Assembly: GCA_038064595.1 (NCBI GenBank)
Contig: JBBTSV010000001.1
Location: 1,915 to 65,914 of the forward strand
Origin: Patescibacteria group bacterium
GTDB taxonomy: Bacteria > Patescibacteriota > Minisyncoccia > Phycocordibacterales > Phycocordibacteraceae
Length of the DNA stretch: 64,000 nt
Direction of reading: 5' to 3'
The first letter of the stretch is position 1. Every line of letters begins with the position of its first letter. The notes below the pieces were generated by a model. It had not been told where the DNA came from. It ran no database searches and was given only the letters and a program-made list of their open reading frames with translations. Both the position numbers and the translations under genes were made by a program. Of the stretch, positions 12,858 to 51,207 are shown piece after piece.

Positions 12858-14081
12858 ATGACCTCTCCTTCCCGTTATCGACCCCGCATTCTCTTTGTAA
12901 GTGAAGCAGTCACGCTCGCCCATCTTGCACGCCCGCTTGCGCTTGCTTCAGCACTCGCTGAAGATGAATACGATGTCCATCTTGCCGTTGGGGATGCGTT
13001 TGAGACAGTCGTGAAGCAGAGTGCGATCACACGACACACGATTACCAACCTTTCGCGTACTGAACTCATCAAACGTGTGCGACGTGGTGCGCCCCTCTTT
13101 GACCGCGCGACTCTTGAACGAGAGGTGGTTGAAGATCAGGCGCTCATCAGAGCCCTCCAACCAGATCTCATCATCGGAGACTTCCGGCTTTCGCTTGGGG
13201 TAAGCGCCCGCATCTGTCGGGTCCCGTACGCCGGCATCTCCAATGCATACTGGAGCCCATCAGTAGCCTCCTGGTACGAGGTACCGCCGACTTTGTTTAC
13301 CCGTGTGTGTCCGCTCCCGCTCGCCCAATTCTTTTTTGATCATGCACAGACGCACATCTTTGCGCACCACACTCGACCCTACAACCAGGTACGTGCGCAC
13401 TATGGTCTTCCCCCGATCCCGCCAACGCTTACACACCTGTATACCGACGCTGACCACATGCTCTACGCTGATCCCCCTGACTTATTCCGAGGGCCACAGT
13501 ATTTAGCAAATGAACATTTTCTAGGGTTCATGCCGTGGTCGCTCGAAGCCCCGCACCCCTCAACGATAGAGTTTCCCAATACACACGAACCGCTCTGTTA
13601 CGTCGCACTCGGCAGCAGCGGTGCGCACCATCTAACCGAGAAAATTATTCAAGCATTCGGTGCTCTGCCGGTACGCGCGCTCATCGGGCGCGACGCCCAT
13701 CTCGTTGACGTCCCCCTCTCGCCTAACGTGCGTTTGACGCCGCTTTTGTCGGCAGCAACGATAGCAGAAAAAGCTGATCTCTTGATTATCAATGGCGGAA
13801 GTACGATGACGAGTCATGCGATAACTGCTGGGAAGCCAATAATCGGTATATCGGACAACATTGACGCATTGCTCAACATGCAGCGGATCGTAGCAAGTGG
13901 TATCGGCCTCTCCTTTCGTACCGATCGCTTTACGTCTCGAATGTTTGCAGATGGAGTGATGCGGATATTAACTGACCCCACCTTTCGCACAGCCGCACAG
14001 CTCCTTCAACGCTCTGCAGCGCAGCACGACTTTCGGAGAAATATCAGGTCATTCATTTCTTCAGTGACTGGTATACAATAA
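12858..14081 (+). CDS. GT-B glycosyltransferase, family 1 / MGT-like (UDP-sugar dependent)
   Basis: C-terminal signature INGGSTMTSHAITAGKPIIGISDNIDALLNMQRIVASGIG; -10 TATACT 8 nt upstream of the ATG. Confidence 0.8.
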   Translation: MTSPSRYRPRILFVSEAVTLAHLARPLALASALAEDEYDVHLAVGDAFETVVKQSAITRHTITNLSRTELIKRVRRGAPLFDRATLEREVVEDQALIRALQPDLIIGDFRLSLGVSARICRVPYAGISNAYWSPSVASWYEVPPTLFTRVCPLPLAQFFFDHAQTHIFAHHTRPYNQVRAHYGLPPIPPTLTHLYTDADHMLYADPPDLFRGPQYLANEHFLGFMPWSLEAPHPSTIEFPNTHEPLCYVALGSSGAHHLTEKIIQAFGALPVRALIGRDAHLVDVPLSPNVRLTPLLSAATIAEKADLLIINGGSTMTSHAITAGKPIIGISDNIDALLNMQRIVASGIGLSFRTDRFTSRMFADGVMRILTDPTFRTAAQLLQRSAAQHDFRRNIRSFISSVTGIQ

Positions 14082-14089
14082 AGGTACGC

Positions 14090-14758
14090 ATGAAAACCTC
14101 ACCTCTCGACCTTGTGTTCAACGGAGGTGCTTTCCTCCTCATTCTCGGGGGGGTGAGCGTGATTGTGCTCTGGTACGTTGCCCCCTTCACGACTGCGCTC
14201 ACGGGGGTATACCATCCCGTGTTTGATGTCGTGGTCGCGTCCGTCTTGTTTGGGGTAGGCGCAGGTATCCTGGTACGCACCACGCTTCTATTTCTCCCAC
14301 TTCAGCAAGGAACCTTTCGTATGGATCAACCGATTTTTACCTACTGGAAATTTCTCACCCTCACCTATTACACCGGGAAAGCTGCGCTCTCTCCAGTAAC
14401 GGTACTTCCACTTCGCCCGTGGGTGTTACGACTGTTTGGGGCACGTATTGGTAGCGACGTTGCGATTGATGGTGTGGTCGACACCCCGTTCCTCACCACC
14501 ATTGGCGATCGCACGCTTGTGGGAAACGGGTCACATCTTGCGGGGAACGTGACCCAGAACGGAGCACTGATTATCGGGCGTGTACAGATTGGATCAGACG
14601 TTACTATTTGTATGAATGCGGTCGTATTGCCGAATACGATCATCGGTGACCGTGCGGTCGTTGACATTGGCGCGGTGGTCATGCCCGGCTCGGTGATACC
14701 GGCAGGAGAGACCTGGCGGGGGAATCCGGCACGCAAGTGGCTCGGCGCGAGCGTCTAA
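14090..14758 (+). CDS. hexapeptide-repeat (LbH) acetyl/acyltransferase with N-terminal TM segments
   Basis: Imperfect tandem hexapeptide repeats (IGSDVAIDG.., IGDRTLVGNG.., IGSDVTIC..). Confidence 0.75.
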   Translation: MKTSPLDLVFNGGAFLLILGGVSVIVLWYVAPFTTALTGVYHPVFDVVVASVLFGVGAGILVRTTLLFLPLQQGTFRMDQPIFTYWKFLTLTYYTGKAALSPVTVLPLRPWVLRLFGARIGSDVAIDGVVDTPFLTTIGDRTLVGNGSHLAGNVTQNGALIIGRVQIGSDVTICMNAVVLPNTIIGDRAVVDIGAVVMPGSVIPAGETWRGNPARKWLGASV

Positions 14759-14762
14759 CACT

Positions 14763-15014
14763 ATGGATACGCGAGACAGAGTTCGCACCGTGTTTGACGA
14801 TACGCTCCAGCTCGGTGGACGCACCGCCGCGTGGGAGGAGACGACCCCGCTCCTCGGGAGCTTGGCCGAACTTGATTCGCTGACTATCTTTACGGTCATC
14901 GCTGCGCTCGAGAAAGAATTCGCTATCGCGTTTGATGATGGCGATATCAATGCCGAGGTGCTCGCGACACTCGGTTCACTCACCGCGTTTATCGACGAGA
15001 AACAGGCGACATAA
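14763..15014 (+). CDS. acyl carrier protein (phosphopantetheine site LDSL)
   Basis: 83 aa, acidic, LAELDSLTIFTVI helix-II serine. Confidence 0.65.
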   Translation: MDTRDRVRTVFDDTLQLGGRTAAWEETTPLLGSLAELDSLTIFTVIAALEKEFAIAFDDGDINAEVLATLGSLTAFIDEKQAT

Positions 15015-15020
15015 TCTGCC

Positions 15021-16601
15021 ATGATCATCCTCGTTCACGATCTCATAGCATCTGCAGCAGAGCGGTGGGGGGAACGGGTTGCGTTGCGGTACCAGAATCA
15101 AGAACTCACCTACCGGGCGCTCGCAGACGCGGTCGCCGCGAGCGCGTCCGGCTACAGGGCTCTCGGGCTTGCGCGCGGCGATCGTGTTGCGGTGTATACC
15201 GAGAAACGTCTCGAGACCGTCATCGCGCTCTTTGGCGCCACACATGCTGGTGGGGTCATGGTGCCTGTTAATCCGGTACTCAAGGCCAATCAGGTCGCAC
15301 ATATTGTACGCGACAGCACCGCACGCATACTTGTGACTACGAGTGAGCGGGTCGCGAGCCTCTCCGCCGTGCTTGATACCTGCCCAAGCCTCACTCACGT
15401 GATCTGTATCGGTGAAGCGCCCATTGACCACTCGGCGCGATTCTCGTGGGTTGGGTGGTCGTCTCTTCTGGAACAGGTGCCGTGTGAAGGTCACCGCACT
15501 ATTGATAGCGATATCGCCGCGCTCCTCTATACCTCCGGGAGTACGGGGAGACCCAAGGGCGTGATCATACCGCATCGTGTGCTCTGTGCGGGCGCGGCAA
15601 GTGTCGCAACGTATCTCGAGCTGACCGCCAAGGAGCGTGTGCTCGCCGTTCTCCCACTCTCTTTTGATTATGGTCTCAATCAACTGACGGCGACGTGGTA
15701 TGCAGGCGGCTGCGTGGTACTCATGAACCATCTTCTCGTAAAGGACATTATTTCTATGGTGGAGAAGGAGAAGATTACCGGTCTTGCGGCGGTGCCCGCA
15801 CTCTGGATCCAGCTCGCGCAGCTCTCATGGCCGCCCGCGTGTCGTGCCCACCTACGCTATATCACGAACTCTGGTGGGCATATGCCCAATGAAACGCTTG
15901 CGCGTTTACGTGCCGCGCTCCCGACCACCACTCCATACCTGATGTACGGCCTCACCGAGAGCTTCCGCTCGACCTACCTGCCACCGGCCGATCTTGATAC
16001 GCGCCCCGACTCTATCGGAAAAGCGATCCCGAATGCAGAGGTTTTGGTGGTACGCCCAGACGGCACTCCCTGCGCGCCGCATGAGCCGGGAGAGCTCGTG
16101 CATCGCGGCACACTGGTCGCACTTGGATACTGGAACGACCCGGAGAAGACCAAGGAGCGTTTTCGTCCGCTTCCGGGGCAGCGCCCCGAATTGCCTCTCG
16201 CCGAGCTTTGTGTGTGGTCCGGCGATACGGTTACTATGGATGAGGACGGGTACCTCTATTATGTTGGGCGCACTGATGAAATGATTAAGACGTCGGGGTA
16301 TCGAGTGAGCCCGACAGAGATCGAGGAGGTACTCTATGCCACGAAGCTCGTTGGGGAGGTCGCTGTTTTCGGCGTCCCGCATCCGGAGCTCGGGCAGGCA
16401 ATCGCGGTAGTCGCGACCCCCGCCTTGGGCACTGATCTCTCGCCCGAGACGCTGCTCACTGTCTGTCGACAGCGCTTCCCGCGCTATATGGTCCCAGCTC
16501 ATCTCGAGGTTGTGCACGGACCGCTTCCGGTGAACGCCAATGGGAAGTTCGACCGCCGTCTGCTTGCCGAAGAACGGAAACACGTATGCATCACATCTTA
16601 A
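15021..16601 (+). CDS. AMP-dependent synthetase/ligase (acyl-CoA or acyl-ACP ligase)
   Basis: LYTSGSTGRPKGV AMP-binding motif, 526 aa. Confidence 0.85.
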   Translation: MIILVHDLIASAAERWGERVALRYQNQELTYRALADAVAASASGYRALGLARGDRVAVYTEKRLETVIALFGATHAGGVMVPVNPVLKANQVAHIVRDSTARILVTTSERVASLSAVLDTCPSLTHVICIGEAPIDHSARFSWVGWSSLLEQVPCEGHRTIDSDIAALLYTSGSTGRPKGVIIPHRVLCAGAASVATYLELTAKERVLAVLPLSFDYGLNQLTATWYAGGCVVLMNHLLVKDIISMVEKEKITGLAAVPALWIQLAQLSWPPACRAHLRYITNSGGHMPNETLARLRAALPTTTPYLMYGLTESFRSTYLPPADLDTRPDSIGKAIPNAEVLVVRPDGTPCAPHEPGELVHRGTLVALGYWNDPEKTKERFRPLPGQRPELPLAELCVWSGDTVTMDEDGYLYYVGRTDEMIKTSGYRVSPTEIEEVLYATKLVGEVAVFGVPHPELGQAIAVVATPALGTDLSPETLLTVCRQRFPRYMVPAHLEVVHGPLPVNANGKFDRRLLAEERKHVCITS

Positions 16602-17800
16602 ACTCTTTTTCTACCACCAACCACGAGCTCGTCATCGGCGGTGTGCCGCTCACAACGCTCGTGGCGCGTGTTGGCTCCACCCCTTTGTATGTCTATGATC
16701 GAGAGCGGATCACTGACCGGGTTGCACTTCTGCGGAAACACCTCTCGCCGATGCTCAACGTCTCCTATGCCATGAAGGCAAACCCCATGCCCGCCGTGCT
16801 CGCGCACCTTGCGTCACAGGTTGATGGCTTTGACGTCTCCTCGCTTACCGAGATGACGCGGGCGCTCGATACAGGCATGCCAGCTACCGCGATAAGCTTT
16901 TCTGGACCGGGGAAAACTGAAAAAGAAATCACCTGTGCCGTGGCGGCGGGCGTACTCCTCCATGTGGAGTCGCTCCGCGAGCTGCGAGCAGTTATCGCTG
17001 CGGGGATAGCACTCGGACAGACACCACGCATTGCACTCCGGATCAATCCGGATTTTGCGGTGAAGGGGGTAAAGATAAAAATGGGCGGGATGACCCAGTT
17101 TGGTGTTGATCCGGAGACCGTCCCCGAGATGCTCACGATGCTCACGGCAGCCGGTCTTACCTGTGAAGGATTCCACATCTTCTGTGGCTCGCAGAACCTG
17201 CATGCCGACCTCGCAGTTACTGTGGTGAAGGACTCTCTTGCGCTCCTGTATCGTCTCTCTGCGCAGCTCCCCGCGCCGCCGCGTTCGCTCGTCCTCGGTG
17301 GCGGGTTCGGCATCCCGTATTTCCCGGGTGACGAGCCACTTGATATAGCTGCCGTGGGGAAGGGGCTCCAGCCTCTCCTGACTGAAGCGAAAGCGCATTT
17401 TCCCGAGGCAGTCATTGGTATGGAGCTTGGGCGCTATCTGGTGGGCGAAGCCGGGGTATATGTCGCGCGGGTGATAGACACAAAAACGGTACGGGAAAAA
17501 ACCTTTGTCGTCACCGATGGCGGACTCCATCACCACCTACCCGCCTCGGGGAACTTTGGGCAGTTTATCCGCCGCAACTACCCCGTCGCCATCGGTAACC
17601 GCATGAACACCCCAGCCACTGAGATCGTCTCAATCGTGGGGCCACTGTGCACCACCCTCGATCTTCTGGCCGACTCGGTGCAGCTGCCGCACGTGAGTAT
17701 TGGCGATCTGGTGGTCGTCTTTCAGTCGGGAGCGTACGGCCTCACTGCAAGCCCCCTCGACTTTCTCAGTCACCCACACCCCGTCGAAGTACTGGTCTAG
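16586..17800 (+). CDS. PLP-dependent decarboxylase (Orn/DAP/Arg decarboxylase fold type III)
   Basis: N-terminal TIM-barrel with AMKAN (PLP lysine) and a C-terminal beta-sandwich; overlaps the ligase stop. Confidence 0.8.
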   Translation: MHHILNSFSTTNHELVIGGVPLTTLVARVGSTPLYVYDRERITDRVALLRKHLSPMLNVSYAMKANPMPAVLAHLASQVDGFDVSSLTEMTRALDTGMPATAISFSGPGKTEKEITCAVAAGVLLHVESLRELRAVIAAGIALGQTPRIALRINPDFAVKGVKIKMGGMTQFGVDPETVPEMLTMLTAAGLTCEGFHIFCGSQNLHADLAVTVVKDSLALLYRLSAQLPAPPRSLVLGGGFGIPYFPGDEPLDIAAVGKGLQPLLTEAKAHFPEAVIGMELGRYLVGEAGVYVARVIDTKTVREKTFVVTDGGLHHHLPASGNFGQFIRRNYPVAIGNRMNTPATEIVSIVGPLCTTLDLLADSVQLPHVSIGDLVVVFQSGAYGLTASPLDFLSHPHPVEVLV

Positions 17801-17822
17801 AAGGCGGTATACTATACGTACT

Positions 17823-18683
17823 ATGTCCGTTGATGCTTGGTCATACCGTGAAGCGTTTGATCGCAACAGAAAGCTCATTAGTGACGATCATCAAGAAAAA
17901 CTCGAGCAGGCGCGCGTCGCGATCGCGGGGCTCGGCGGGGTCGGCGGGATCCACGCCACCACGCTTGCGCGGCTTGGGATAGGGCACTTCAGCATCGCTG
18001 ACCCCGATACGTTTGAGCTCTCCAATATCAATCGGCAACAAGGGGCGAACACCACCACCCTTAACATGCCCAAGAACATCACCCTCGAGCGGCTCATAAA
18101 AGAGATTAACCCCACAGCCGAGGTGCGCGTGAGCGGCGCCCTGACCGAAGAAAATATCGACGCCTTTCTCGAGGGAGCAACGCTTGCCGTCGACGGTATC
18201 GATTTCTTCACTATAAGTGCCCGCCGTCTCCTCTACCGCACATGCCGCGCGCGCGGGATCCCGGTCCTGGGCGCCGGACCAATCGGCTTTGGGTCCTCGA
18301 TGCTCAACTTCAGCCCCACTGGCATGAGCTTCGACGACTACATGAACATCACCGATGCCTTGCCGGAGCGTGAGCAGATACTCCACTTCGCGCTTGGTAT
18401 CGCACCGCGCATGCTCCAACGTTCCTACTTTGCGCCCACGACTATCGACTTCGCGGGTCATCACGCCCCCTCCTCCGTGCTGGGGACCCTCGCGTGTGCC
18501 AACTTCGTTGGTTGTGAGGCGTACAAGATTATCGTCGGACTCCCGTATGAGAGTGCACCGGTTTCCTGGCACTTCGACCCCTACGTGCGAAAGCTCCGAC
18601 GCTGCAACCTATGGGGAGGGAATCGTAACCCCATTCAGCGCTTCAAAAAATGGTATTTTATACATATCCTTAAATTGAAATGA
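17823..18683 (+). CDS. ThiF/MoeB/HesA-family E1-like adenylyltransferase
   Basis: VAIAGLGGVGG nucleotide-binding loop, NINRQ motif. Confidence 0.75.
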   Translation: MSVDAWSYREAFDRNRKLISDDHQEKLEQARVAIAGLGGVGGIHATTLARLGIGHFSIADPDTFELSNINRQQGANTTTLNMPKNITLERLIKEINPTAEVRVSGALTEENIDAFLEGATLAVDGIDFFTISARRLLYRTCRARGIPVLGAGPIGFGSSMLNFSPTGMSFDDYMNITDALPEREQILHFALGIAPRMLQRSYFAPTTIDFAGHHAPSSVLGTLACANFVGCEAYKIIVGLPYESAPVSWHFDPYVRKLRRCNLWGGNRNPIQRFKKWYFIHILKLK

Positions 18684-19324
18684 CCGCAACGCTCACTAAG
18701 AGGGTCGGCATACGCTCGCTCGACACCATATTCCGCACGACCCAGCTCATTACCTACCCCTTCAACTGGTGGCTCAGTCGGCGTATCAAGCTGACGGCAC
18801 GGGTGCCCTATACCTTCAGCGTACCGCGCGGGACCCTGGTGCTTGCAAATCACCGGAGTCTCTTTGATCCGTTTTTGATCGCGTATCACTTGGGGATGGA
18901 GAATTGGCTCCACACGATCCCCACGCGCTATCCGGCGACTCCTGACTATACGCTTCGCCCCATCCTTGGTTCGGTGATACGTGCGCTCGGCGCCTACAAC
19001 ATCGGTAGGACACCGATGGAGCGCGCCAAGAAGCTCGTGTTTACCCGTGACCTGCTTGATCGCGGATGTACGGTCCTCCTTTTTCCAGAAGGGAAGATTG
19101 TAGATAACGGGGAAGTGGTCGCCGAGTTTCAGCGGGGTATCAAGATGCTTTTCGCCCAGGACTACCCGATCGTCCTCGTCCGCCTCTCGGGCTTCAACAC
19201 CCACTCATTTCTGCGTCCCCATACCGTCGCCGACGCCCGTATTGAGTACAGCCCCGTTATCCGAGGGACTCCCGAGATGAAGCTCGAGCAACTCCGCACG
19301 TTTTACGGCTTACGCGATGTATGA
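18680..19324 (+). CDS. PlsC-family (lysophospholipid/OlsA-like) acyltransferase
   Basis: HXXXXD motif NHRSLFD and FPEG block. Confidence 0.75.
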   Translation: MTATLTKRVGIRSLDTIFRTTQLITYPFNWWLSRRIKLTARVPYTFSVPRGTLVLANHRSLFDPFLIAYHLGMENWLHTIPTRYPATPDYTLRPILGSVIRALGAYNIGRTPMERAKKLVFTRDLLDRGCTVLLFPEGKIVDNGEVVAEFQRGIKMLFAQDYPIVLVRLSGFNTHSFLRPHTVADARIEYSPVIRGTPEMKLEQLRTFYGLRDV

Positions 19325-19926
19325 TCTGGGATCTGGTGCGCAGTAGCGAGACGACGCGCGCGGCGCTCTCTACCGCCGGACATCAGGCAGCCACGCGCGC
19401 GGCACAGCGCGCCCTGCAGATCAGCGACCCGCGTGGAGAGCACCACACCATTGCTATCGAGAAAGATGTACTTGGGAAGCCGGAGGCGCGTGTGCTGGGG
19501 AGTGCCCAGTCAGTCGCGGTGTCCATATCACACGCAGCTCCGTTTGTCTGTGCGGTCGCGGATACGGCGCCGGTACTGCTCGGTACCGACATCGAGCGTA
19601 TCCGCCCGTGCACCACTGCCGTTTGGGAGGCCTGTCTCACCCCCGCGGAAAAAGCGTTCATCGCGGCCGCGCCGCGCCGCGAGCGCGAGATGCTCCAGAT
19701 TCGCGCGTGGTCGCTCAAGGAGGCGGTACTGAAGGCATTTGGGGTGGGGTTGCGCGTGCATCCGCGCAATGTTGATGTGACCAATGCGCTTGGGGCGACC
19801 ACCTCGACCGTGCGTATTGGATGGCGGGGGGTGTGGCATACTGCAACGGTAGAGTGGATGCACCTTAACCCCACCTATGTCGCGGTGGCGGTTGCATTTC
19901 CTTTTTCAGCTCGTACACTAGAGTGA
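19321..19926 (+). CDS. 4'-phosphopantetheinyl transferase (Sfp/EntD type)
   Basis: GTDIE and WSLKEAVLKA motifs. Confidence 0.75.
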   Translation: MIWDLVRSSETTRAALSTAGHQAATRAAQRALQISDPRGEHHTIAIEKDVLGKPEARVLGSAQSVAVSISHAAPFVCAVADTAPVLLGTDIERIRPCTTAVWEACLTPAEKAFIAAAPRREREMLQIRAWSLKEAVLKAFGVGLRVHPRNVDVTNALGATTSTVRIGWRGVWHTATVEWMHLNPTYVAVAVAFPFSARTLE

Positions 19927-20198
19927 TGGATGTTCGCGATTTTGTGCTCACGGCTATTGCAGAAACGCTTGACCTTCCGCTGGCCGTGGTGCGTGACGAC
20001 AGTAAGCTCGTCGACTTGGCCGAAGACTCGATTAAGCTCTTTGAGCTCCTAATCCGGCTCGAGAACCTTTTTTCATATCGCGTAAGTTATGAGGCGATTG
20101 TGCATATTGAGACAGTGGGCGATGTCATCGCCTACATAGAGACGCTCCCGATCGACCGCGGCGTGCTCCAGGCTACTACCCAGAAGAAAGCCGCATGA
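19923..20198 (+). CDS. acyl carrier protein (second copy, DSI serine)
   Basis: 91 aa, LAEDSIKLFELL. Confidence 0.6.
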   Translation: MMDVRDFVLTAIAETLDLPLAVVRDDSKLVDLAEDSIKLFELLIRLENLFSYRVSYEAIVHIETVGDVIAYIETLPIDRGVLQATTQKKAA

Positions 20199-20809
20199 GC
20201 GGGAACCCGCGTTGTGTGGTGCTCACCCTTCCCGCAGAAAAGCAGGCGGCCCAAGATATCGTCCGGCGTGTCTACGCGGCCCAAGGTTATGACTTGAGCG
20301 AGGGGGTGTTTGTCCGCTTCCTGCGCACCCCGAATGCTGTGGTGTGGGGGCTCTTCGAAGAGGATGTCCTCTTTGGCACCATCTCCATTATCCCTGACAG
20401 TGAGGCAGGACTCCCGATGGACTCGCTCTATGCTGAAGAGCTCGCCCCCTTTCGAGCCGAGGGGAAGAAAATAGCAGAAGTCGTCCAGTTTGCGATCGAT
20501 CATACGCTCAAAAAACCATCACCCTTTGAAGCGGTCCCGCTTCTTATCACCGTCCTCTCCTATGCACGCACCCAAAAAATTGACACCATCTGCATCTCAA
20601 TCCACCCAAAGCACAGCCAGTTCTACCACATGCTCGGTTTTGAAAAAATAGGTGACCTCAAGCAGTATCAGGCAGTCGCGGCACCAGCCGTTGCGTATGC
20701 GCTGCCGCTTGTCGCGTGGGAAACTAATCCCTTTTTTGGTAACTTTCTGCGCAACGCGATTCGCCCTGATGGTGGGGTCTCTAGTGGAGAAGAGCGAGCT
20801 GCAATATAA
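20195..20809 (+). CDS. N-acyl amino acid synthase (FeeM/OlsB-like GNAT-fold N-acyltransferase)
   Basis: About 200-aa protein with the layout of FeeM-family N-acyl amino acid synthases; terminal gene of the ACP/ligase/PPTase operon. Confidence 0.55.
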   Translation: MSGNPRCVVLTLPAEKQAAQDIVRRVYAAQGYDLSEGVFVRFLRTPNAVVWGLFEEDVLFGTISIIPDSEAGLPMDSLYAEELAPFRAEGKKIAEVVQFAIDHTLKKPSPFEAVPLLITVLSYARTQKIDTICISIHPKHSQFYHMLGFEKIGDLKQYQAVAAPAVAYALPLVAWETNPFFGNFLRNAIRPDGGVSSGEERAAI

Positions 20810-22684: not shown

Positions 22685-22972
22685 ATGAATGAATTTCATC
22701 CGTCAGATCTGGCCAGAGGTGAGCCGTTTCGCGAGTCAATCCGCTATAAAGAACCGTTTGACGTCGAAAGACTCGACAAAGCACACGCAATCCTTAGCGA
22801 GGTACTAGAAACACATGGGCACGAAAGTGTAACCCCCGAAAACTTCCACGAAGTGGTAGAACACATGCGTAAAGACTCTCGTTGGCATGGACTCCACTCG
22901 GCGGGACCGGCCTTCGAGAACGCGCTCCGCACACACCTCAAGATCGAAGATCCAGGCGAGACTAAGCATTAA
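22685..22972 (+). CDS. small hypothetical protein
   Basis: 95-aa ORF, no Shine-Dalgarno sequence. Confidence 0.35.
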   Translation: MNEFHPSDLARGEPFRESIRYKEPFDVERLDKAHAILSEVLETHGHESVTPENFHEVVEHMRKDSRWHGLHSAGPAFENALRTHLKIEDPGETKH

Positions 22973-23064: not shown

Positions 23065-23135
23065 TGCGGGTTCGTCTAATGGTAGGACACATCCCTCTGG
23101 AGGATGGTATTGGGGTTCGAGTCCCTGACCCGCAG
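23065..23135 (+). tRNA. tRNA-Gln (anticodon CUG)
   Basis: Acceptor TGCGGGT/ACCCGCA (U1-A72), D-arm GTCT..GGAC, anticodon stem CATCC/GGATG with loop CTCTGGA, T-arm TGGGG-TTCGAGT-CCCTG. Confidence 0.8.
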
Positions 23136-23187
23136 CAAAAGTGCGAAGCAGCTTTTGCTGCGGGGAGCGAGGTCTGGGAAACCTCGC

Positions 23188-23245
23188 GTCAGGGACTCGA
23201 AAGCCGGAGCGCGACGGCGCGAGGCGGGGTCGCGCAAATTTCTAG
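23188..23245 (+). repeat. tRNA-linked repeat R1 (58 nt): inverted copy of the tRNA-Gln T-arm, then a conserved core with a GCGC-GACG-GCGC hairpin
   Basis: About 90% identical to 51113-51170; the 5' 14 nt are the exact reverse complement of the tRNA-Gln T-arm. Confidence 0.7.
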
Positions 23246-23257
23246 AGGGGAAATCGG

Positions 23258-23282
23258 GGAAATCGTGACAGTCACGATTTCC
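23258..23282. promoter_or_regulatory. 25-bp perfect palindrome GGAAATCGTGACAGTCACGATTTCC (candidate operator or recombination site)
   Basis: Perfect dyad symmetry, preceded by a GGAAATCG direct half-repeat. Confidence 0.5.
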
Positions 23283-23321
23283 ACTCCGTTGTTGAATAAA
23301 TAGTTCGCGGACACGGACACT

Positions 23322-23349
23322 TTGCTTTCTGCAGGTTTTTCAGTATAGT
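23322..23349 (+). promoter_or_regulatory. promoter TTGCTT-16-TATAGT for the small-gene cassette
   Basis: Hexamers with 16-nt spacing upstream of an AGGAG ribosome-binding site and the ATG at 23397. Confidence 0.4.
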
Positions 23350-23396
23350 GTCGCGATGGACTGCAATGTCTGCGGTCCAATAACAGGAGCGAGAAA

Positions 23397-23678
23397 ATGA
23401 TCGAGATGACCAGGGCTGGGGGCGGGGGTCGAGGGCGCGTGCGGTGGCAGTTGACCGCCATCGCTGAAGACAGCACCGCCGCCATCGAGTTCCCGGGCCC
23501 CGAAGAGATTCGGGAACTCTTCCACAAGCATGCGGACGCCCGTCACCGGGAAGGTCCGTTCAGCGTGGTGAGTCGCTCACCGTGCGTTGTGGAACTCCCC
23601 GCTGGGGTGTGCCACCGTTGCCGCCAGAACTTCTTGGCGGCTGTCGCGGTGGTAATGGGTGTTCCCACCGCCCTCTAG
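23397..23678 (+). CDS. small Cys-containing hypothetical protein (paralog A)
   Basis: AGGAG 8 nt before the ATG; paralogous to 23806-24096 (RVRWQL/RLSRWWL; FSVVSRSPCVVELP/FMVVDRQINHVAFLMP; FLAAVAVVMGVP/FVAAIEAAIGLS). Confidence 0.55.
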   Translation: MIEMTRAGGGGRGRVRWQLTAIAEDSTAAIEFPGPEEIRELFHKHADARHREGPFSVVSRSPCVVELPAGVCHRCRQNFLAAVAVVMGVPTAL

Positions 23679-23686
23679 GGCGAATC

Positions 23687-23718
23687 GGGTCGAGGCATGC
23701 CTCGACCCGCGTCTTTTA
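23687..23718 (+). terminator. rho-independent terminator GGGTCGAGGC-AT-GCCTCGACCC followed by TCTTTTAT
   Basis: 10-bp GC-rich stem plus T-run. Confidence 0.7.
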
Positions 23719-23805
23719 TAGACACACCAGTTTCATTGTCTTTCATACGGAAATCAGTATGATGCGGCCATGGTCGCAATCCCTGCGACCTATGAGGAGA
23801 TGCCC

Positions 23806-24096
23806 ATGAACCCATGCCGGCTTGAGCTGGTACGGAGGGGAGCAGATGCCCCACGCCTTTCTCGGTGGTGGCTCGGGAGGAAGGATTGTCTTCCCGTCAC
23901 TCTGCCGAGCGATGGAGATCTGACGCAGATGTACGGCGCGACCATCGGCCGTGAGAGCGAGCGATTCATGGTCGTCGATCGTCAGATCAATCACGTCGCG
24001 TTCTTGATGCCGACGAGGAGCTCTGACGAAGAGCGCGCTCGCTTTGTCGCGGCCATCGAGGCAGCGATCGGGCTCTCCGTTTCTGCTCCTGTGTGA
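23806..24096 (+). CDS. small hypothetical protein (paralog B)
   Basis: GAGGAG 6 nt before the ATG at 23806; paralogous to 23397-23678. Confidence 0.5.
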   Translation: MNPCRLELVRRGADAPRLSRWWLGRKDCLPVTLPSDGDLTQMYGATIGRESERFMVVDRQINHVAFLMPTRSSDEERARFVAAIEAAIGLSVSAPV

Positions 24097-24102
24097 CCGA
24101 GC

Positions 24103-24136
24103 GGGTCGAGGCTTGCCTCGGCCCGCGTTGTTTTTA
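24103..24136 (+). terminator. rho-independent terminator, near-duplicate of 23687-23718
   Basis: GGGTCGAGGC-TT-GCCTCGGCCC followed by GTTGTTTTTAT. Confidence 0.7.
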
Positions 24137-24221
24137 TACGAATTCTTGCTTTTTTGATAAAAAAAGTGATGATGTACTGGGCCGTACACCGTACGCTCAT
24201 AACTCAACCCCTGGAGAAGAC

Positions 24222-24968
24222 ATGCACAACCCACCGAACATGGGCGACGTCTACGACGTGTTCGCCAAAGCGTTCCGCGAGGCCGATCAGTTGCCGACGT
24301 GGCAGTTTGTCGGCAAGCCGGCCATGGAGGCGCTCCTGCGCGACTCGGCGCCTGATATGCAATTTCTCGATCTTGGCTCCGCGAGCGCGCGGGTCGAGGT
24401 CGGGGTCCTCATCCCGCACGACGTTGCCCCAGGCAATATCACCGGCGTCGAGATCAGCCCCGAGCAGGTCGAGATGGCACGCATGCGGGTGCCGGGCGCG
24501 CGCTTTGAGGTCGGCGACATCGCCGATCCCAATCTCCTTGCAGGTGAAGAAGAGCAGTACGACGTGGTGCTTTCGCACATGGTGTTCGAGCACCTCGACG
24601 ACGCACAGCTTGCGTGGGCGTGCGCGAATGCATACCGCCTGCTGAAAGCGGGCGGGACTTTCGCCTTCGTCGTCACCCACCCTGACAAGATGACCGATCT
24701 TGAGGGAAATCTTGTCACCACCTATGGATCGTTCATCACGACAGCTCCATGGGGTGGCGAGCTCCACAACTGGCGTCGCAGTATTGCGACGACAAGGGAG
24801 ATCGTGGAGGACGTCGGGTTTGCGGTAAGCGGCGTGAGCGAAATTGCGTTCCCGACCGAGCCTCCCGCAGGGCTCGACCCTGAGCAAGAGGCCACGTTTC
24901 GCGCGGCTGCAGAGAAGTATCGCCGGTATCCGGCGATCCGGCTCGCGCTCCACGCGACCAAGGCCTAG
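24222..24968 (+). CDS. class I SAM-dependent methyltransferase
   Basis: LDLGSASARV (motif I), DVVLSHMVFEHL, LKAGG; GGAGA Shine-Dalgarno 4 nt before the ATG; the longer ORF start would overlap the terminator. Confidence 0.7.
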   Translation: MHNPPNMGDVYDVFAKAFREADQLPTWQFVGKPAMEALLRDSAPDMQFLDLGSASARVEVGVLIPHDVAPGNITGVEISPEQVEMARMRVPGARFEVGDIADPNLLAGEEEQYDVVLSHMVFEHLDDAQLAWACANAYRLLKAGGTFAFVVTHPDKMTDLEGNLVTTYGSFITTAPWGGELHNWRRSIATTREIVEDVGFAVSGVSEIAFPTEPPAGLDPEQEATFRAAAEKYRRYPAIRLALHATKA

Positions 24969-25034
24969 TGCGCGTGCGCACATGGTCGACCGACAGCGCC
25001 CCCGCGGCGCTGTTGTTTTTGGTACACTACGGGT

Positions 25035-40527: not shown

Positions 40528-42465
40528 ATGGCACCCGTCTCTCCGAAGAAGCCAAAAGGGAAGAAGCAGCCCAGCAAGGGCGGCTGGCGCGCGCCCTTTG
40601 GCGGGAACTCCTTCTTCGGTAATTTGTTCTCCACCATCCTCATCTTCTTCCTCATCATGAGCGGGTACTCGCTCGTTGAAAGCCTGTTCGAGCCAAGTGT
40701 CGAGATCCCGCTCTCGGTGGTCGCGGCTGATGTCGGGGAAGGGAAGGTGAAGGCCATCACCATAAGTGGCGACTCACTCAAACTCGTTTACACCGATGAT
40801 TCGATTAAGATCTCGCGTAAAGACCCCTCGGCCGGTCTCCTCGAAACCCTCTCAACATACGGTGTGACTCCTGAGGGGCTCGCCAAGGTGGCGATTACTA
40901 TCCAGGGAGAGTCGGGATTCCAGTTCTGGGTTCTCACTCTTGCGCCAATCCTTATCCCGATTCTCTTTCTCGCATTTCTCTTCTGGTTCCTCTCTCGCCA
41001 GGTGAAGGGGGCGGGGATGCAGGCCTTCACCTTCGGTCAGTCGAAGGCGCGGGTCATCGATCCGGCTGATGTGACCCAGCGTGTTACCTTTGCCGATGTT
41101 GCGGGCGCCCGCGAGGCAAAGGAGGAGCTTTTAGAGATTGTCGACTTCCTCAAAAGCCCCAAGAAGTTCCTCGATATCGGCGCGCGGATCCCCAAGGGAA
41201 TTATCCTCATGGGCGCGCCGGGGACCGGCAAGACCCTGCTTGCGCGCGCGGTCGCGGGTGAGGCTGGGGTCCCGTTCTTCTCGATCTCGGGCTCTGAGTT
41301 TGTCGAGATGTTTGTTGGCGTGGGCGCCTCGAGAGTGCGCGATCTCTTCCAGCTCGCTAAGAAGGCGGCGCCTGCGATTATCTTCGTCGATGAGATCGAC
41401 GCGGTGGGGCGCGTGCGCGGCACCGGAGTGGGTGGCGGCAACGACGAACGCGAGCAGACTCTGAACCAGATCTTGGTGGAGATGGACGGCTTTGAGCCTA
41501 CCGAGAAGGTAGTGGTGATGGCGGCGACTAACCGGCCCGACGTCCTCGACCCGGCCCTCCTTCGCCCCGGGCGCTTTGACCGTCGCGTGACGATTGACCT
41601 CCCTGATCGGCGTGATCGCGAGGATATTCTCAAGATCCATGCGCGCGCGAAGCCGCTCGGCCCCGATGTCGCGCTCGCGGTTATTGCCGAGCGTACGCCG
41701 GGCTTCTCGGGCGCCGAGCTGTACTCACTCATGAATGAAGGCGCGATTCTTGCCGCGCGCGAGAATCGCAAAGAGGTCACCCAATATGATTTGATTCGTT
41801 CCATCGAGAAGGTGATGCTCGGCCCAGAGCGCAAATCGCATTTGCTTAGTAAAAAAGAAAAAGAGCTCACCGCCTACCACGAGGCGGGACACGCGCTTGT
41901 CTCTTCAGTCTTGCCGAATGCCGACCCGGTGCACAAAATTTCTATCATTAGTCGTGGTCGCGCCGCGGGCTACACGCTGAAGCTCCCCTTTGAAGACCGC
42001 AAGATGCAGTCTAAGAAACAATTTCTCGATGATATCGCGGCGACGCTCGGCGGCTACGTCGCAGAAGAGATGCTCTTTGACGACGTGACCACGGGGCCCT
42101 CTAATGACCTGATGGTGATTACCGCGCTCGCGCGTGAGATGGTGACGCGCTACGGCATGAGCGATAAGCTGGGGCCCGTCGCCTTCGGCGAGCGCTCCTT
42201 GGGCAACGAGCCCTACTCCGAGCACGTCGCCGCTCAGATCGACGCAGAGGTCACACGGATTATCGAGGAGGCCAAGGCACGCGCTAAGCAGGTGATTACC
42301 GATCACCGCGCTGCGCTCGACGCGATCGCCAAGGAGCTGACCGAGAAGGAGACGGTGGAGCGCGCTGAATTCGAGAAGATCCTCATCGCCAACGGCATCA
42401 CGCCCAAGAAGAGTGAAGAGGAAGGCATCGTCATCGCGCCCGCCCCTACAGGAGACATTGCATAA
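40528..42465 (+). CDS. ftsH: ATP-dependent zinc metalloprotease FtsH
   Basis: AAA+ [18 protein letters not shown] zinc site. Confidence 0.95.
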
Positions 42466-42474
42466 TTTTTAGTC

Positions 42475-42547
42475 CGCCCCCCTGGACTCGAACCAGGAAC
42501 CGCAGAGGTATAAGCTCTGTGCTCTAACCATTGAGCTAGGGGCGGAT
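42475..42547 (-). tRNA. tRNA-Ile (anticodon UAU)
   Basis: Acceptor CCGCCCC/GGGGCGG, anticodon stem CAGAG/CTCTG with loop CTTATAC (UAU), T-arm CCTGG-TTCGAGT-CCAGG, discriminator A. Confidence 0.7.
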
Positions 42548-50933: not shown

Positions 50934-50971
50934 CCGGATAGAGGTTTTTCTGCTATAACTCATAGACGACG

Positions 50972-51056
50972 GAGGGTTCGCATAGAGGTCTAGTGCGCAC
51001 GCTTGGAAAGCGTGTGTGGGGAAACCCACCGAGGGTTCGAATCCCTCACCCTCCGC
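50972..51056 (+). tRNA. tRNA-Ser (anticodon GGA), type II with long variable arm
   Basis: Acceptor GGAGGGT/ACCCTCC, anticodon stem CACGC/GCGTG with loop TTGGAAA, variable arm GTGGG-GAAA-CCCAC, T-arm GAGGG-TTCGAAT-CCCTC. Confidence 0.85.
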
Positions 51057-51112
51057 AATGATTCGCAAAGACGGTTGGGAACCGTCTGCGCGAAGCATCA
51101 TTGCGCGAGATG

Positions 51113-51170
51113 TGAGAGATTCGAAGGCCGGAGGGCGACGGCCCGAGGCGGGGTAGCGCAAATTTCTAGC
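51113..51170 (+). repeat. tRNA-linked repeat R2 (58 nt): inverted tRNA-Ser T-arm copy plus a conserved core with a GGGC-GACG-GCCC hairpin
   Basis: About 90% identical to R1; two of the five mismatches are compensatory in the 4-bp stem. Confidence 0.7.
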
Positions 51171-51188
51171 AAGAAATTATGCGTGACC

Positions 51189-51207
51189 GAATCCCTCACC
51201 CTCCGCC
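51189..51207 (+). repeat. 19-nt direct duplicate of the tRNA-Ser 3' end (att-like scar)
   Basis: CGAATCCCTCACCCTCCGC identical to tRNA positions 51038-51056. Confidence 0.6.

Follow-up and report, generated by a model that had tools for sequence, protein, structure and literature searches.

What do two small open reading frames (ORFs) lying in tandem directly 3′ of a tRNA-Gln gene in a Patescibacteria genome encode, and how did they come to be arranged there? The DNA in which we addressed this question comprises 64,000 nucleotides of a Patescibacteria group bacterium (assembly GCA_038064595.1, contig JBBTSV010000001.1, positions 1,915 to 65,914 of the forward strand); we call this whole stretch the window and number positions from its first nucleotide. 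Going 3′ from the tRNA-Gln gene, the order of the elements is a 25-bp palindrome, ORF1 with a terminator, ORF2 with a terminator, and a gene for a class I S-adenosylmethionine (SAM)-dependent methyltransferase. All of the elements named in a preliminary description of this DNA, which saw the stretch as consistent with a small acquired cassette, were found at or very near the positions that it had assigned to them. We consider it probable that the locus consists of two units of a new small-protein family, with flanks better conserved than the ORFs they enclose, in a tRNA-proximal variable region that arose by local duplication or recombination. The two ORFs at the centre of the question are the following.

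23397-23678, plus strand: ORF1, 93 amino acids (aa), with AGGAG (23385-23389) 8 nt 5′ of the ATG
23806-24096, plus strand: ORF2, 96 aa, with GAGGAG (23794-23799) 6 nt 5′ of the ATG

The strong AGGAG and GAGGAG ribosome-binding sites (RBS) that had been noted earlier are thus present 8 and 6 nt upstream of the respective start codons. ORF2 has an alternative ATG at 23770, and the protein deposited at NCBI, MEK7604211.1 ('MAG: hypothetical protein AAB442_00165 [Patescibacteria group bacterium]', where MAG is a metagenome-assembled genome), is the 108-aa version that starts there.

When a joint profile of ORF1 and ORF2 was searched exhaustively against 1.84 billion protein representatives, five more proteins were recovered with E-values from 9e-8 to 6e-4 (P0004, P0005, P0007, P0008 and P0011, of 84-118 aa), matched over about 80 of some 90 residues. 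The conservation in relatives on which the preliminary description had made the two ORFs hinge is present, as collinear homologues of about 90 aa in other genomes. With ORF1 and ORF2 included, the family has seven known members and is extremely sparse: word-indexed searches of 5.8 billion proteins with each ORF returned the query members alone, a word-indexed search of 5.8 billion proteins with the enlarged seven-member profile yielded no further member, and the hidden Markov model (HMM) of the family found no other copy in the window or in about 1.3 Mb of other loci, mostly labelled Patescibacteria. In the alignment of the seven members, W17, L19, P33, P68 and R76 (ORF1 numbering) are invariant, and the consensus reads WWLGR..D....FPS...L..LF....G.L.V..R..N.C.I..P.G.....R..FL.AVE; ORF1 and ORF2 both belong to the family by a full-length collinear profile match and by these invariant W, L, P, P and R residues. 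The proteins range from neutral to strongly basic, with isoelectric points (pI) between 7.8 and 10.8, and inspection of the sequences gave no signal peptide or transmembrane segment. Going by source labels and gene content, the members appear to come from Patescibacteria/Paceibacterota.

Structure prediction, which had been proposed as a check on the two small proteins, gave one confident fold shared by both. The AlphaFold2 (AF2) model of ORF1 has a pLDDT of 87.2 and a pTM of 0.79, with the order beta-beta-alpha-beta-beta-alpha, and that of ORF2, with a pLDDT of 84.3 and a pTM of 0.74, has the identical topology (strands E and helices H in the order E-E-H-E-E-H). For ORF1 and ORF2, the two members modelled, a compact beta-beta-alpha-beta-beta-alpha two-layer sandwich is therefore confidently predicted. 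The family had no match in Pfam, in PADLOC (0 families even at E<=10) or among PDB sequences, profile searches against PHROGs and NCBIfam gave noise alone, and Foldseek searches returned nothing at E<=0.001 from the PDB, where both models were used, or from BFVD. The best Foldseek matches were generic two-layer alpha/beta sandwiches (LuxS, EutS/BMC, eS24, an archaeal RecJ/Cdc45 domain and a DCoH-like protein) with template modelling (TM) scores of 0.3-0.5. As judged by these database searches, the ORF1/ORF2 family is previously undescribed. Several candidate identities were tried and rejected: matches to Far1/FusB (E=0.085 over 19 residues) and ClpS (E=0.17) were judged noise; GatC, suggested by adjacency to tRNA-Glu/Gln and by its size of about 95 aa, had no Pfam match; and a GIY-YIG-like nuclease, an AbrB/MazE-type swapped hairpin and an SUI1 fold were supported neither by sequence nor by Foldseek.

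ORF1 and ORF2 had been described as clear paralogs. Their distant paralogy is real, on the evidence of shuffled alignments, of the homologues recovered by the joint profile and of the common predicted fold, but "clear" overstates it, since the two proteins share 20-23% identity and BLASTP of one against the other gave E=0.65 on a different local match and nothing meaningful. The global alignment is collinear, with z=3.6-4.8, and 0-9 of 2000 shuffles aligned equally well. ORF1 is nearer to homologues elsewhere (37% identity to P0005 and 31% to P0004 and P0008), and the most distant pair in the whole seven-member family is ORF1 and ORF2.

The DNA around the two ORFs is organized as follows; the promoters and transcript ends are predictions from the sequence.

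23322-23350, plus strand: promoter-like site 1, TTGCTT-16-TATAGT(G), read in the sequence; its -10 region is conserved with unit 2
23357-23379, plus strand: 5′ leader hairpin 1, UGGACUGCA-AUGUC-UGCGGUCCA, -15.4 kcal/mol, z=-3.1
23686-23719, plus strand: terminator 1 (hairpin 23686-23709), a perfect 24-bp palindrome CGGGTCGAGGCA/TGCCTCGACCCG and then CGTCTTTTAT
23736-23763, plus strand: promoter-like site 2, TTGTCT-16-TATGAT, 9/12 in the consensus scan and aligned with unit 1
23769-23794, plus strand: 5′ leader hairpin 2, GGUCGCA-AUCCC-UGCGACC core, about -15 kcal/mol, running into GAGGAG
24101-24136, plus strand: terminator 2 (hairpin 24101-24126), an 11-bp stem and then GTTGTTTTTA

The TTGCTT-16-TATAGT promoter that had been proposed ahead of ORF1 is indeed there as a predicted site, although the consensus scanner missed it: its -35 hexamer matches 3/6 bases, which leaves the site below the threshold. 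Leader hairpin 1 is followed by AAUAAC and then by the Shine-Dalgarno sequence of ORF1, and the stems of the two leaders are preserved through two compensatory pair changes. The two terminators, with GC-rich stems of 10-11 bp and T runs, lie 8 and 5 nt past the stop codons. Over 38 nt, 84% of their positions are identical, and the distance from one to the other is 416 nt. This bears out the earlier claim that each small ORF is closed by a near-identical terminator, and their motif occurs in the 64 kb at these two sites only (at each on both strands, against 0.03 expected). Features of a Rho-independent terminator, that is, a GC-rich stem-loop and a T run after a stop codon, are predicted at both hairpins and at a third (24991-25015), which follows the methyltransferase gene.

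When units 1 and 2 were aligned as DNA, the best-conserved blocks were the -10 region (TCAGTATAGTG versus TCAGTATGATG), the leader hairpin and the terminator, while the coding parts hardly aligned at all. The regulatory flanks are about 70-86% alike in DNA, against the low protein identity given above. Both units have the same build, which is TTGnnn-16-TATrrT, a stem-loop leader, a strong Shine-Dalgarno sequence, an ORF of about 95 codons and a GC-rich palindromic terminator. The module duplication of "ORF plus terminator" proposed in the preliminary description is thereby supported, and the repeat extends further than was claimed, to the -10 box and the 5′ leader hairpin. No further copy of the leader, the terminator or the family was found in the window beyond these two units. 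Because the flanks are far more alike than the proteins and ORF1 is closer to foreign homologues than to ORF2, the flanks may have been copied or homogenised independently of the ORFs. A promoter-leader/terminator scaffold of this kind would carry different ORFs, and the flanks could act as an expression scaffold that is used repeatedly and could also offer the substrate on which local recombination works. From their signals, we infer that units 1 and 2 are strongly and separately expressed, and the stretch 3′ of tRNA-Gln as a whole is predicted to form three independent single-gene transcription units.

Flanks that are better conserved than the ORFs between them invite the opposite view, namely that the ORFs are chance frames in GC-rich non-coding DNA and that the functional product is an RNA bearing the leader and terminator hairpins. 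The codon-usage scores are low (0.047 for ORF1 and -0.06 for ORF2, versus 0.36+-0.13 for native genes); the two frames top all six but are roughly tied with one antisense frame, long antisense ORFs overlap the region, and the word-indexed searches gave no homologue. All contigs carrying the locus are 100% identical, with 0 single-nucleotide polymorphisms among them, so that no ratio of nonsynonymous to synonymous substitutions (dN/dS) can be estimated; the contigs 100% identical to the window come from metagenomes of the Hainich groundwater well H41. Chance frames would not, however, be expected to yield collinear homologues with conserved motifs along their whole length in an exhaustive profile search, nor confident AF2 models of one common topology for both ORFs, nor strong Shine-Dalgarno sites at the correct spacing. 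As for an RNA product, tRNAs alone scored above the gathering threshold in Rfam and the leaders had no match. We regard the chance-frame reading as largely refuted and scarcely credible. Given the homologues found with the joint profile, the shuffle z-scores and the shared AF2 topology, ORF1 and ORF2 are, as far as sequence and models can tell, real protein-coding genes and distant paralogues.

The genomic settings of the homologues are diverse. P0004 stands in an apparent operon of the order RecJ-RNase HI-P0004-134-aa ORFan, directly upstream of ComEC, and this arrangement recurs in the contigs carrying P0004 (26 index blocks; longest contig 370 kb). P0011, from another lineage, has SOD to one side and the 3′ end of ComEC to the other; it is encoded on the opposite strand and has its own terminator. 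The two loci (L085 3869-8154 for P0004 and L094 471-5737 for P0011) show one conserved RecJ-RNase HI-ComEC-SOD neighbourhood in two lineages, in which the family members occupy different slots on opposite strands, P0004 being apparently co-transcribed with RecJ and RNase HI. P0008, from 'Candidatus Paceibacterota', is found between an ORFan and the murE/dcw cluster, and P0005 and P0007 are on contigs of about 1 kb. At none of the homologue loci is there a methyltransferase beside the family member or a partner gene in common. Two of the homologues each have an unrelated ORFan 41 nt downstream; the neighbouring ORFans (134, 165 and 172 aa) resemble neither one another nor any Pfam family.

Two of these settings, in a Paceibacterota lineage, resemble the window in their build. 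In L089, a promoter-leader module starts no more than 3 nt past a tRNA-Glu(CTC) gene and precedes the 172-aa ORFan, and after a terminator the same promoter-leader module occurs again, ahead of P0008. The module consists of TTGATTTAT..., then GAAATCCTGACCGGTTGCGGCAGGT with a hairpin, and then an A-rich stretch and an RBS. The 1-kb contig L097 opens with the 3′ end of a tRNA-Glu gene, the module, P0005 and the 165-aa ORFan; after these the tRNA 3′ end recurs in part, with no complete tRNA, and the module comes once more. Between L089 and L097, DNA alignment is restricted to the tRNA end and the modules (77-84%, with 82-84% for the modules), and P0005 and P0008 are 41% identical. Each single-gene cassette in these two loci (L089 5186-6340 and L097 1-1059) is preceded by a module of about 70-100 nt with GAAATCCTGACCGGTTGCGGCAGGT as its core, and the cassette content 3′ of tRNA-Glu differs between the two related genomes. 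A metagenome scan with the L089 leader motif re-found the known contig alone. Read at the level of DNA, members of the family are located in tRNA-proximal arrays of single-gene cassettes in two independent lineages, and in both, copying or homogenisation would have acted on the promoter-leader scaffolds separately from the ORFs; the scaffold in the window additionally includes the terminator.

As to what the proteins do, their basic charge, the conserved Trp, Arg and Asn residues, the strong expression signals and the presence of two homologues in the RecJ-RNase HI-ComEC neighbourhood lead us to a tentative suggestion, which we think rather more apt to be wrong than right, that ORF1 and ORF2 are abundant small nucleic-acid-binding accessory proteins, possibly acting as homo- or heterodimers. 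A different proposal, already raised in the preliminary description as a toxin/immunity pair, would see in them a conflict module (toxin/immunity, toxin/antitoxin, or orphan immunity genes) with the methyltransferase perhaps as a third component. Small tandem genes next to a tRNA, with fast divergence and a patchy distribution, would suit such a module, and the unrelated ORFans 41 nt downstream of two homologues are loosely like conserved-plus-variable pairs. Yet ORF1 and ORF2 are homologous and have one fold, unlike the partners of toxin-antitoxin or toxin-immunity systems; an intrinsic terminator and a promoter-like site are predicted between them; and the other members are single genes, one of them in the RecJ-RNase HI housekeeping operon. 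No toxin, antitoxin or immunity match was found in PADLOC or Pfam, nor any polymorphic-toxin gene nearby. The toxin/immunity interpretation thus went unsupported, the two genes being homologues of the same fold that have separate promoter-like sites and terminators and occur as singletons elsewhere, and we judge a conflict module of any of these kinds very unlikely.

The third gene of the stretch and its terminator are as follows.

24222-24968, plus strand: class I SAM-dependent methyltransferase, 248 aa; Pfam Methyltransf_11/25/12/31/23
24991-25015, plus strand: terminator of the methyltransferase gene, unrelated in sequence to terminators 1 and 2

Both the class of the enzyme and the presence of its own terminator agree with what had been described. 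The Pfam scores are well above the cut-offs (49.6 bits for PF08241 against 21.2, and 47.5 bits for PF13649 against 27), and CMAS is also among the best Pfam matches. NCBIfam matches (BioC, CpaM, ArsM, UbiG and Tam) are far below threshold, no DNA-methyltransferase family was among the families listed, and no PDB relative was found by sequence at E<=0.001. The codon score of 0.355 equals the genome mean and is native-like. No nuclease or specificity partner stands beside the gene, whose neighbours are ORF2 and a gene for a Gmad2-domain protein, and at the homologue loci examined the methyltransferase is never found beside other members of the family. The idea of a modification system therefore finds no support, given that the families matched are generic small-molecule methyltransferases, not DNA methyltransferases, and that the gene is absent beside the homologues. 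From its domain matches and context, the enzyme is probably of a generic small-molecule type, a separate transcription unit functionally unrelated to ORF1 and ORF2.

Between the tRNA-Gln gene and ORF1 lies a repeat that incorporates tRNA-derived sequence.

23065-23136, plus strand: tRNA-Gln (anticodon CTG), called by ARAGORN and by Rfam RF00005 with 53.2 bits; no CCA encoded
23116-23201, no strand assigned: fold-back, in which the last approximately 26 nt of the tRNA-Gln gene recur inverted at 23152-23201
23203-23245, plus strand: 43-nt repeat core, with a second copy (51127-51169) downstream of tRNA-Ser, 40/43 identical, 0 expected
23249-23282, no strand assigned: tandem GGGGAAATCG x2 and a 25-bp palindrome GGAAATCGTGAC-A-GTCACGATTTCC (palindrome 23258-23282)

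The tRNA portion of the fold-back comprises the T-loop, the 3′ strand of the T-stem, the 3′ acceptor strand and the trailer, and the inverted copy is interrupted by a nested hairpin of about 25 nt. The 14-mer TTCGAGTCCCTGAC occurs twice in the window, once per strand, where 0.06 would be expected, and as RNA the fold-back has a folding energy of -81.6 kcal/mol (z=-8.2). The inverted T-arm copy at tRNA-Gln occupies 23188-23201, and the repeat region as a whole 23137-23290. A Logan assembly contig begins inside the 43-nt core (window 23216), as expected for a multi-copy repeat. The flank of tRNA-Ser (gene 50971-51056, flank 51057-51206) has a hairpin and an inverted copy of that gene's own T-arm (51112-51125), followed by the core. 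Eighteen nucleotides past the core at tRNA-Ser, 19 nt of the tRNA 3′ end recur exactly and in direct orientation (51188-51206), 150 nt downstream of the original, start to start, and the two copies enclose a 131-bp insert without cargo. In its sequence, this arrangement resembles the trace of an element or process that targets tRNA genes, with neither cargo nor integrase. The element is absent from tRNA-Thr and tRNA-Ile in the window, and a search of the 64 kb at <=3 mismatches for another direct copy of the tRNA-Gln 3′ end found none. Scans of IMG/VR with the leader, the terminator and the 43-nt core gave no match.

The 25-bp perfect palindrome reported earlier was located at 23258-23282, with 12-nt arms and one central base (hairpin -17.4 kcal/mol, z=-3.8). 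It does not recur: the copy is single in the window, and the homologue loci have none. Its position aligns to that of the att-like direct repeat downstream of tRNA-Ser. It abuts the tRNA-flank repeat, and it recalls terminator 1 in being a perfect palindrome and terminator 2 in its tail; we therefore think that it probably forms the far end of that repeat, a terminator-like insulator ahead of the promoter of ORF1, or a combination of the two. The preliminary description had considered a regulator/operator pair. On such a reading, the palindrome would be an operator bound by ORF1 and/or ORF2 as autoregulating small DNA-binding regulators. Perfect 12-bp arms that end 40 nt upstream of the ORF1 -35 hexamer would be suited to this, as would small proteins of a basic family, and a site with two-fold symmetry is one that a small alpha/beta protein could recognize as a dimer. 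Nevertheless, no comparable palindrome precedes ORF2 or any homologue, and neither sequence nor fold gave a helix-turn-helix, ribbon-helix-helix or AbrB-type match. The palindrome is moreover contiguous with a repeat of which tRNA-Ser has a second copy, and when the two copies are aligned it coincides with the att-like end at tRNA-Ser. Terminator 1 is itself a perfect palindrome, so that perfect palindromes at this locus behave as transcript hairpins, and CCGTTGTTG, which follows the 25-bp palindrome, is similar to the tail of terminator 2, CGCGTTGTTTTT. The operator interpretation is unsupported by these comparisons and seems to us quite improbable.

Did the stretch arrive at tRNA-Gln as a mobile element? 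The excess of GC that had led it to be called an islet was confirmed, though it is modest: positions 23137-25030 have 60.5% GC against 55.8% for the window, which is +1.6 standard deviations and the 98th percentile. The stretch is among the two GC-richest of its length in the window, the other being at 41.0-42.3 kb. This second stretch (41000-42300, at least 60.5% GC over 1.9 kb) also adjoins a tRNA gene, tRNA-Ile at 42472-42545 on the minus strand. The islet at tRNA-Gln starts 1 nt past the tRNA gene, as in insertion at a tRNA 3′ end. Under an integration scenario, a tRNA-targeting integrative element would have delivered ORF1, ORF2 and the methyltransferase at tRNA-Gln and later lost its integrase and distal att site. 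Besides position and GC content, the atypical codon usage of ORF1 and ORF2 and the repeat with tRNA-derived sequence between tRNA-Gln and ORF1 speak for it, and where this repeat occurs at tRNA-Ser, a 19-nt direct repeat without mismatches delimits it, an att-like footprint. Elsewhere, family members occur in a tRNA-Glu-proximal array with a second partial tRNA 3′ end. There is also a precedent, described in passages of a preprint on the tycheposons of Prochlorococcus, in which degenerate elements and partial tRNAs are known from tRNA-proximal islands (bioRxiv 10.1101/2020.12.28.424599).

Against integration, no integrase or recombinase was called within 10 kb on either side of ORF1 or among the ORFs of 21.5-27 kb. 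The tRNA-Gln 3′ end has no direct repeat in the 64 kb, its existing copy being inverted and adjacent to the tRNA, and the codon usage of the methyltransferase is fully native. The repeat at tRNA-Ser closes after about 130 bp and is free of cargo, which suggests that the repeat at tRNA-Gln ends at about 23290, before ORF1. IMG/VR gave no matches. By the flanking Gmad2 protein, the species-level genomes nearest to the window are those of a Parcubacteria MAG, at 57% identity, and of a Kaiserbacteria MAG, at 53%; both are too distant for a comparison of the site, having no gene order in common with the window. The acquired cassette of the preliminary description is thus weakly supported: its place at a tRNA, its GC content, the atypical codons of the small ORFs and the arrays of homologues at tRNA genes stand, but an integrase and a direct repeat are lacking and the methyltransferase is native. 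Delivery by an integrative element is an account that we doubt, without considering it far-fetched.

A more general scheme can be drawn from the same observations, though we put it forward as a speculation with little chance of proving right. Patescibacteria might possess integrase-less cassette arrays at tRNA genes, in which promoter-leader(-terminator) modules act as portable handles. ORFan cassettes, including those of the new small-protein family, would be duplicated and swapped between these scaffold handles, and exchange could proceed by natural transformation followed by homologous recombination. The tRNA-flank repeat, with its inverted T-arm and 43-nt core, would then mark where a tRNA-targeting element or process, as yet undescribed, had seeded the array.

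The reading that we favour is narrower, a small tRNA-proximal variable region that would have been built by local duplication or recombination between scaffolds, and a number of points weigh against it and against the functional suggestion attached to it. Promoter-like sites in the region are no more frequent than chance (one was counted). Only two scaffold copies are present in the 64 kb, so that the statement that the scaffold carries different ORFs corresponds to one pair and one other lineage. The codon scores of ORF1 and ORF2 fall at about the 1st-5th percentile of native 95-codon pieces and at about the 90th percentile of off-frame sequence, a coding signal that is weak when taken alone. 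The AF2 models were built on very shallow alignments (2 and 7 sequences), and taxon labels exist for the window and P0008 only. The nucleic-acid-binding guess has no significant structural or sequence match behind it, the RecJ/Cdc45 Foldseek matches of both models being weak (E 0.2-1, TM about 0.4-0.5), and gene neighbourhoods vary among the family members. When these points are set against the rest, we are left with a small-protein family that is new, rare and foldable and that is located in a small variable region near a tRNA gene.

Some further features of the window were observed. Directly 5′ of tRNA-Gln there is an ORFan of 95 aa (22685-22972) with a codon score of 0.042, like those of ORF1 and ORF2; it has no Pfam or NCBIfam match and is unrelated to the ORF1/ORF2 family. 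The public annotation includes an antisense gene of 69 aa on the minus strand (23991-24200; L001 10595-10804), which overlaps the 3′ end of ORF2, terminator 2 and the promoter region of the methyltransferase and is part of a 163-aa open frame on that strand (23743-24234); in DNA this rich in GC, it is in all likelihood a false gene call. Further upstream, at about 13400-20800 (L001 1-7413), Pfam labels outline a compact, biosynthetic-looking gene cluster with an EryCIII-like glycosyltransferase, a hexapeptide transferase, an AMP-binding enzyme, an Orn/DAP/Arg decarboxylase and a ThiF-like protein, as well as an acyltransferase, a 4′-phosphopantetheinyl transferase, a carrier protein and a FeeM-like N-acyl amino acid synthase. 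To our knowledge, such a cluster is unexpected in a Patescibacteria genome, although this is an impression.

The genomes of Patescibacteria are small and have many unannotated genes, and the gain and variation of their accessory genes as well as their gene expression are little understood. The locus yields a foldable small-protein family without a database entry, whose structure is confidently predicted. It would also provide a clean example of an expression unit, composed of promoter, 5′ hairpin leader, Shine-Dalgarno sequence and palindromic terminator, on which annotation or heterologous expression could draw. If general, the combination of flanks conserved above their ORFs with a tRNA-specific repeat would point to recombination-based variable regions that do without classical mobile-element genes. 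Given the small sample, the immediate importance is modest.

Among known protein folds, the models are closest to DCoH/pterin dehydratase-like proteins (PDB 4low) and to permuted ferredoxin-like, BMC and LuxS-type sandwiches, with which they would share the order of secondary structure and a four-stranded antiparallel sheet with two helices. These matches are insignificant (best E 0.02-0.3, TM 0.3-0.5), and the likeness is one of predicted topology and not of membership. As far as we know the catalytic motifs of these families, we did not notice them in ORF1 or ORF2, although no motif search was made. With type II toxin-antitoxin and toxin/immunity pairs, the locus has in common two adjacent small genes, fast evolution and, as often with such pairs, a place in a variable region. 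It differs from them in that ORF1 and ORF2 are paralogous, have one fold, are predicted to be separately transcribed, occur singly elsewhere and match no such family.

The tycheposon islands of Prochlorococcus, as described in passages of the preprint cited above (bioRxiv 10.1101/2020.12.28.424599), are alike in lying directly 3′ of a tRNA gene, in having extra tRNA fragments (here the inverted piece of tRNA-Gln, the 19-nt direct repeat at tRNA-Ser and the partial tRNA-Glu of L097) and in an ORFan content that varies between related genomes, as between L089 and L097. Unlike these islands, the islet at tRNA-Gln is less than 2 kb long, has no integrase, replication or excision gene and is not bounded by a direct repeat, and it combines an inverted tRNA-specific piece with a common 43-nt core, a combination that those passages do not mention.

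Arrays of integron cassettes offer a different parallel, with short single-ORF cassettes, palindromic structured separators, conserved elements between cassettes and variable ORFs. The window has neither intI nor attI, however, and its palindromes are terminators of stem and T run and not attC sites; in addition, each of its cassettes has a promoter-like site, whereas integron cassettes are generally promoterless.

Downstream of tyrT in Escherichia coli, tandem units of about 178 bp contain the 3′ end of the tRNA and encode a small basic peptide of 33 aa, Tpr. The units in the window, with a period of 416 nt, differ from these repeats in having no tRNA fragment and in consisting of full promoter-leader-ORF-terminator sets, and their ORFs are highly diverged proteins of about 95 aa that are predicted to fold, as opposed to a 33-aa peptide. 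The resemblance lies in tandem units 3′ of a tRNA gene, with copies of the tRNA 3′ end and a small basic ORF, for which L097 gives the best fit, and in local unequal recombination as the likely origin of the arrangement.

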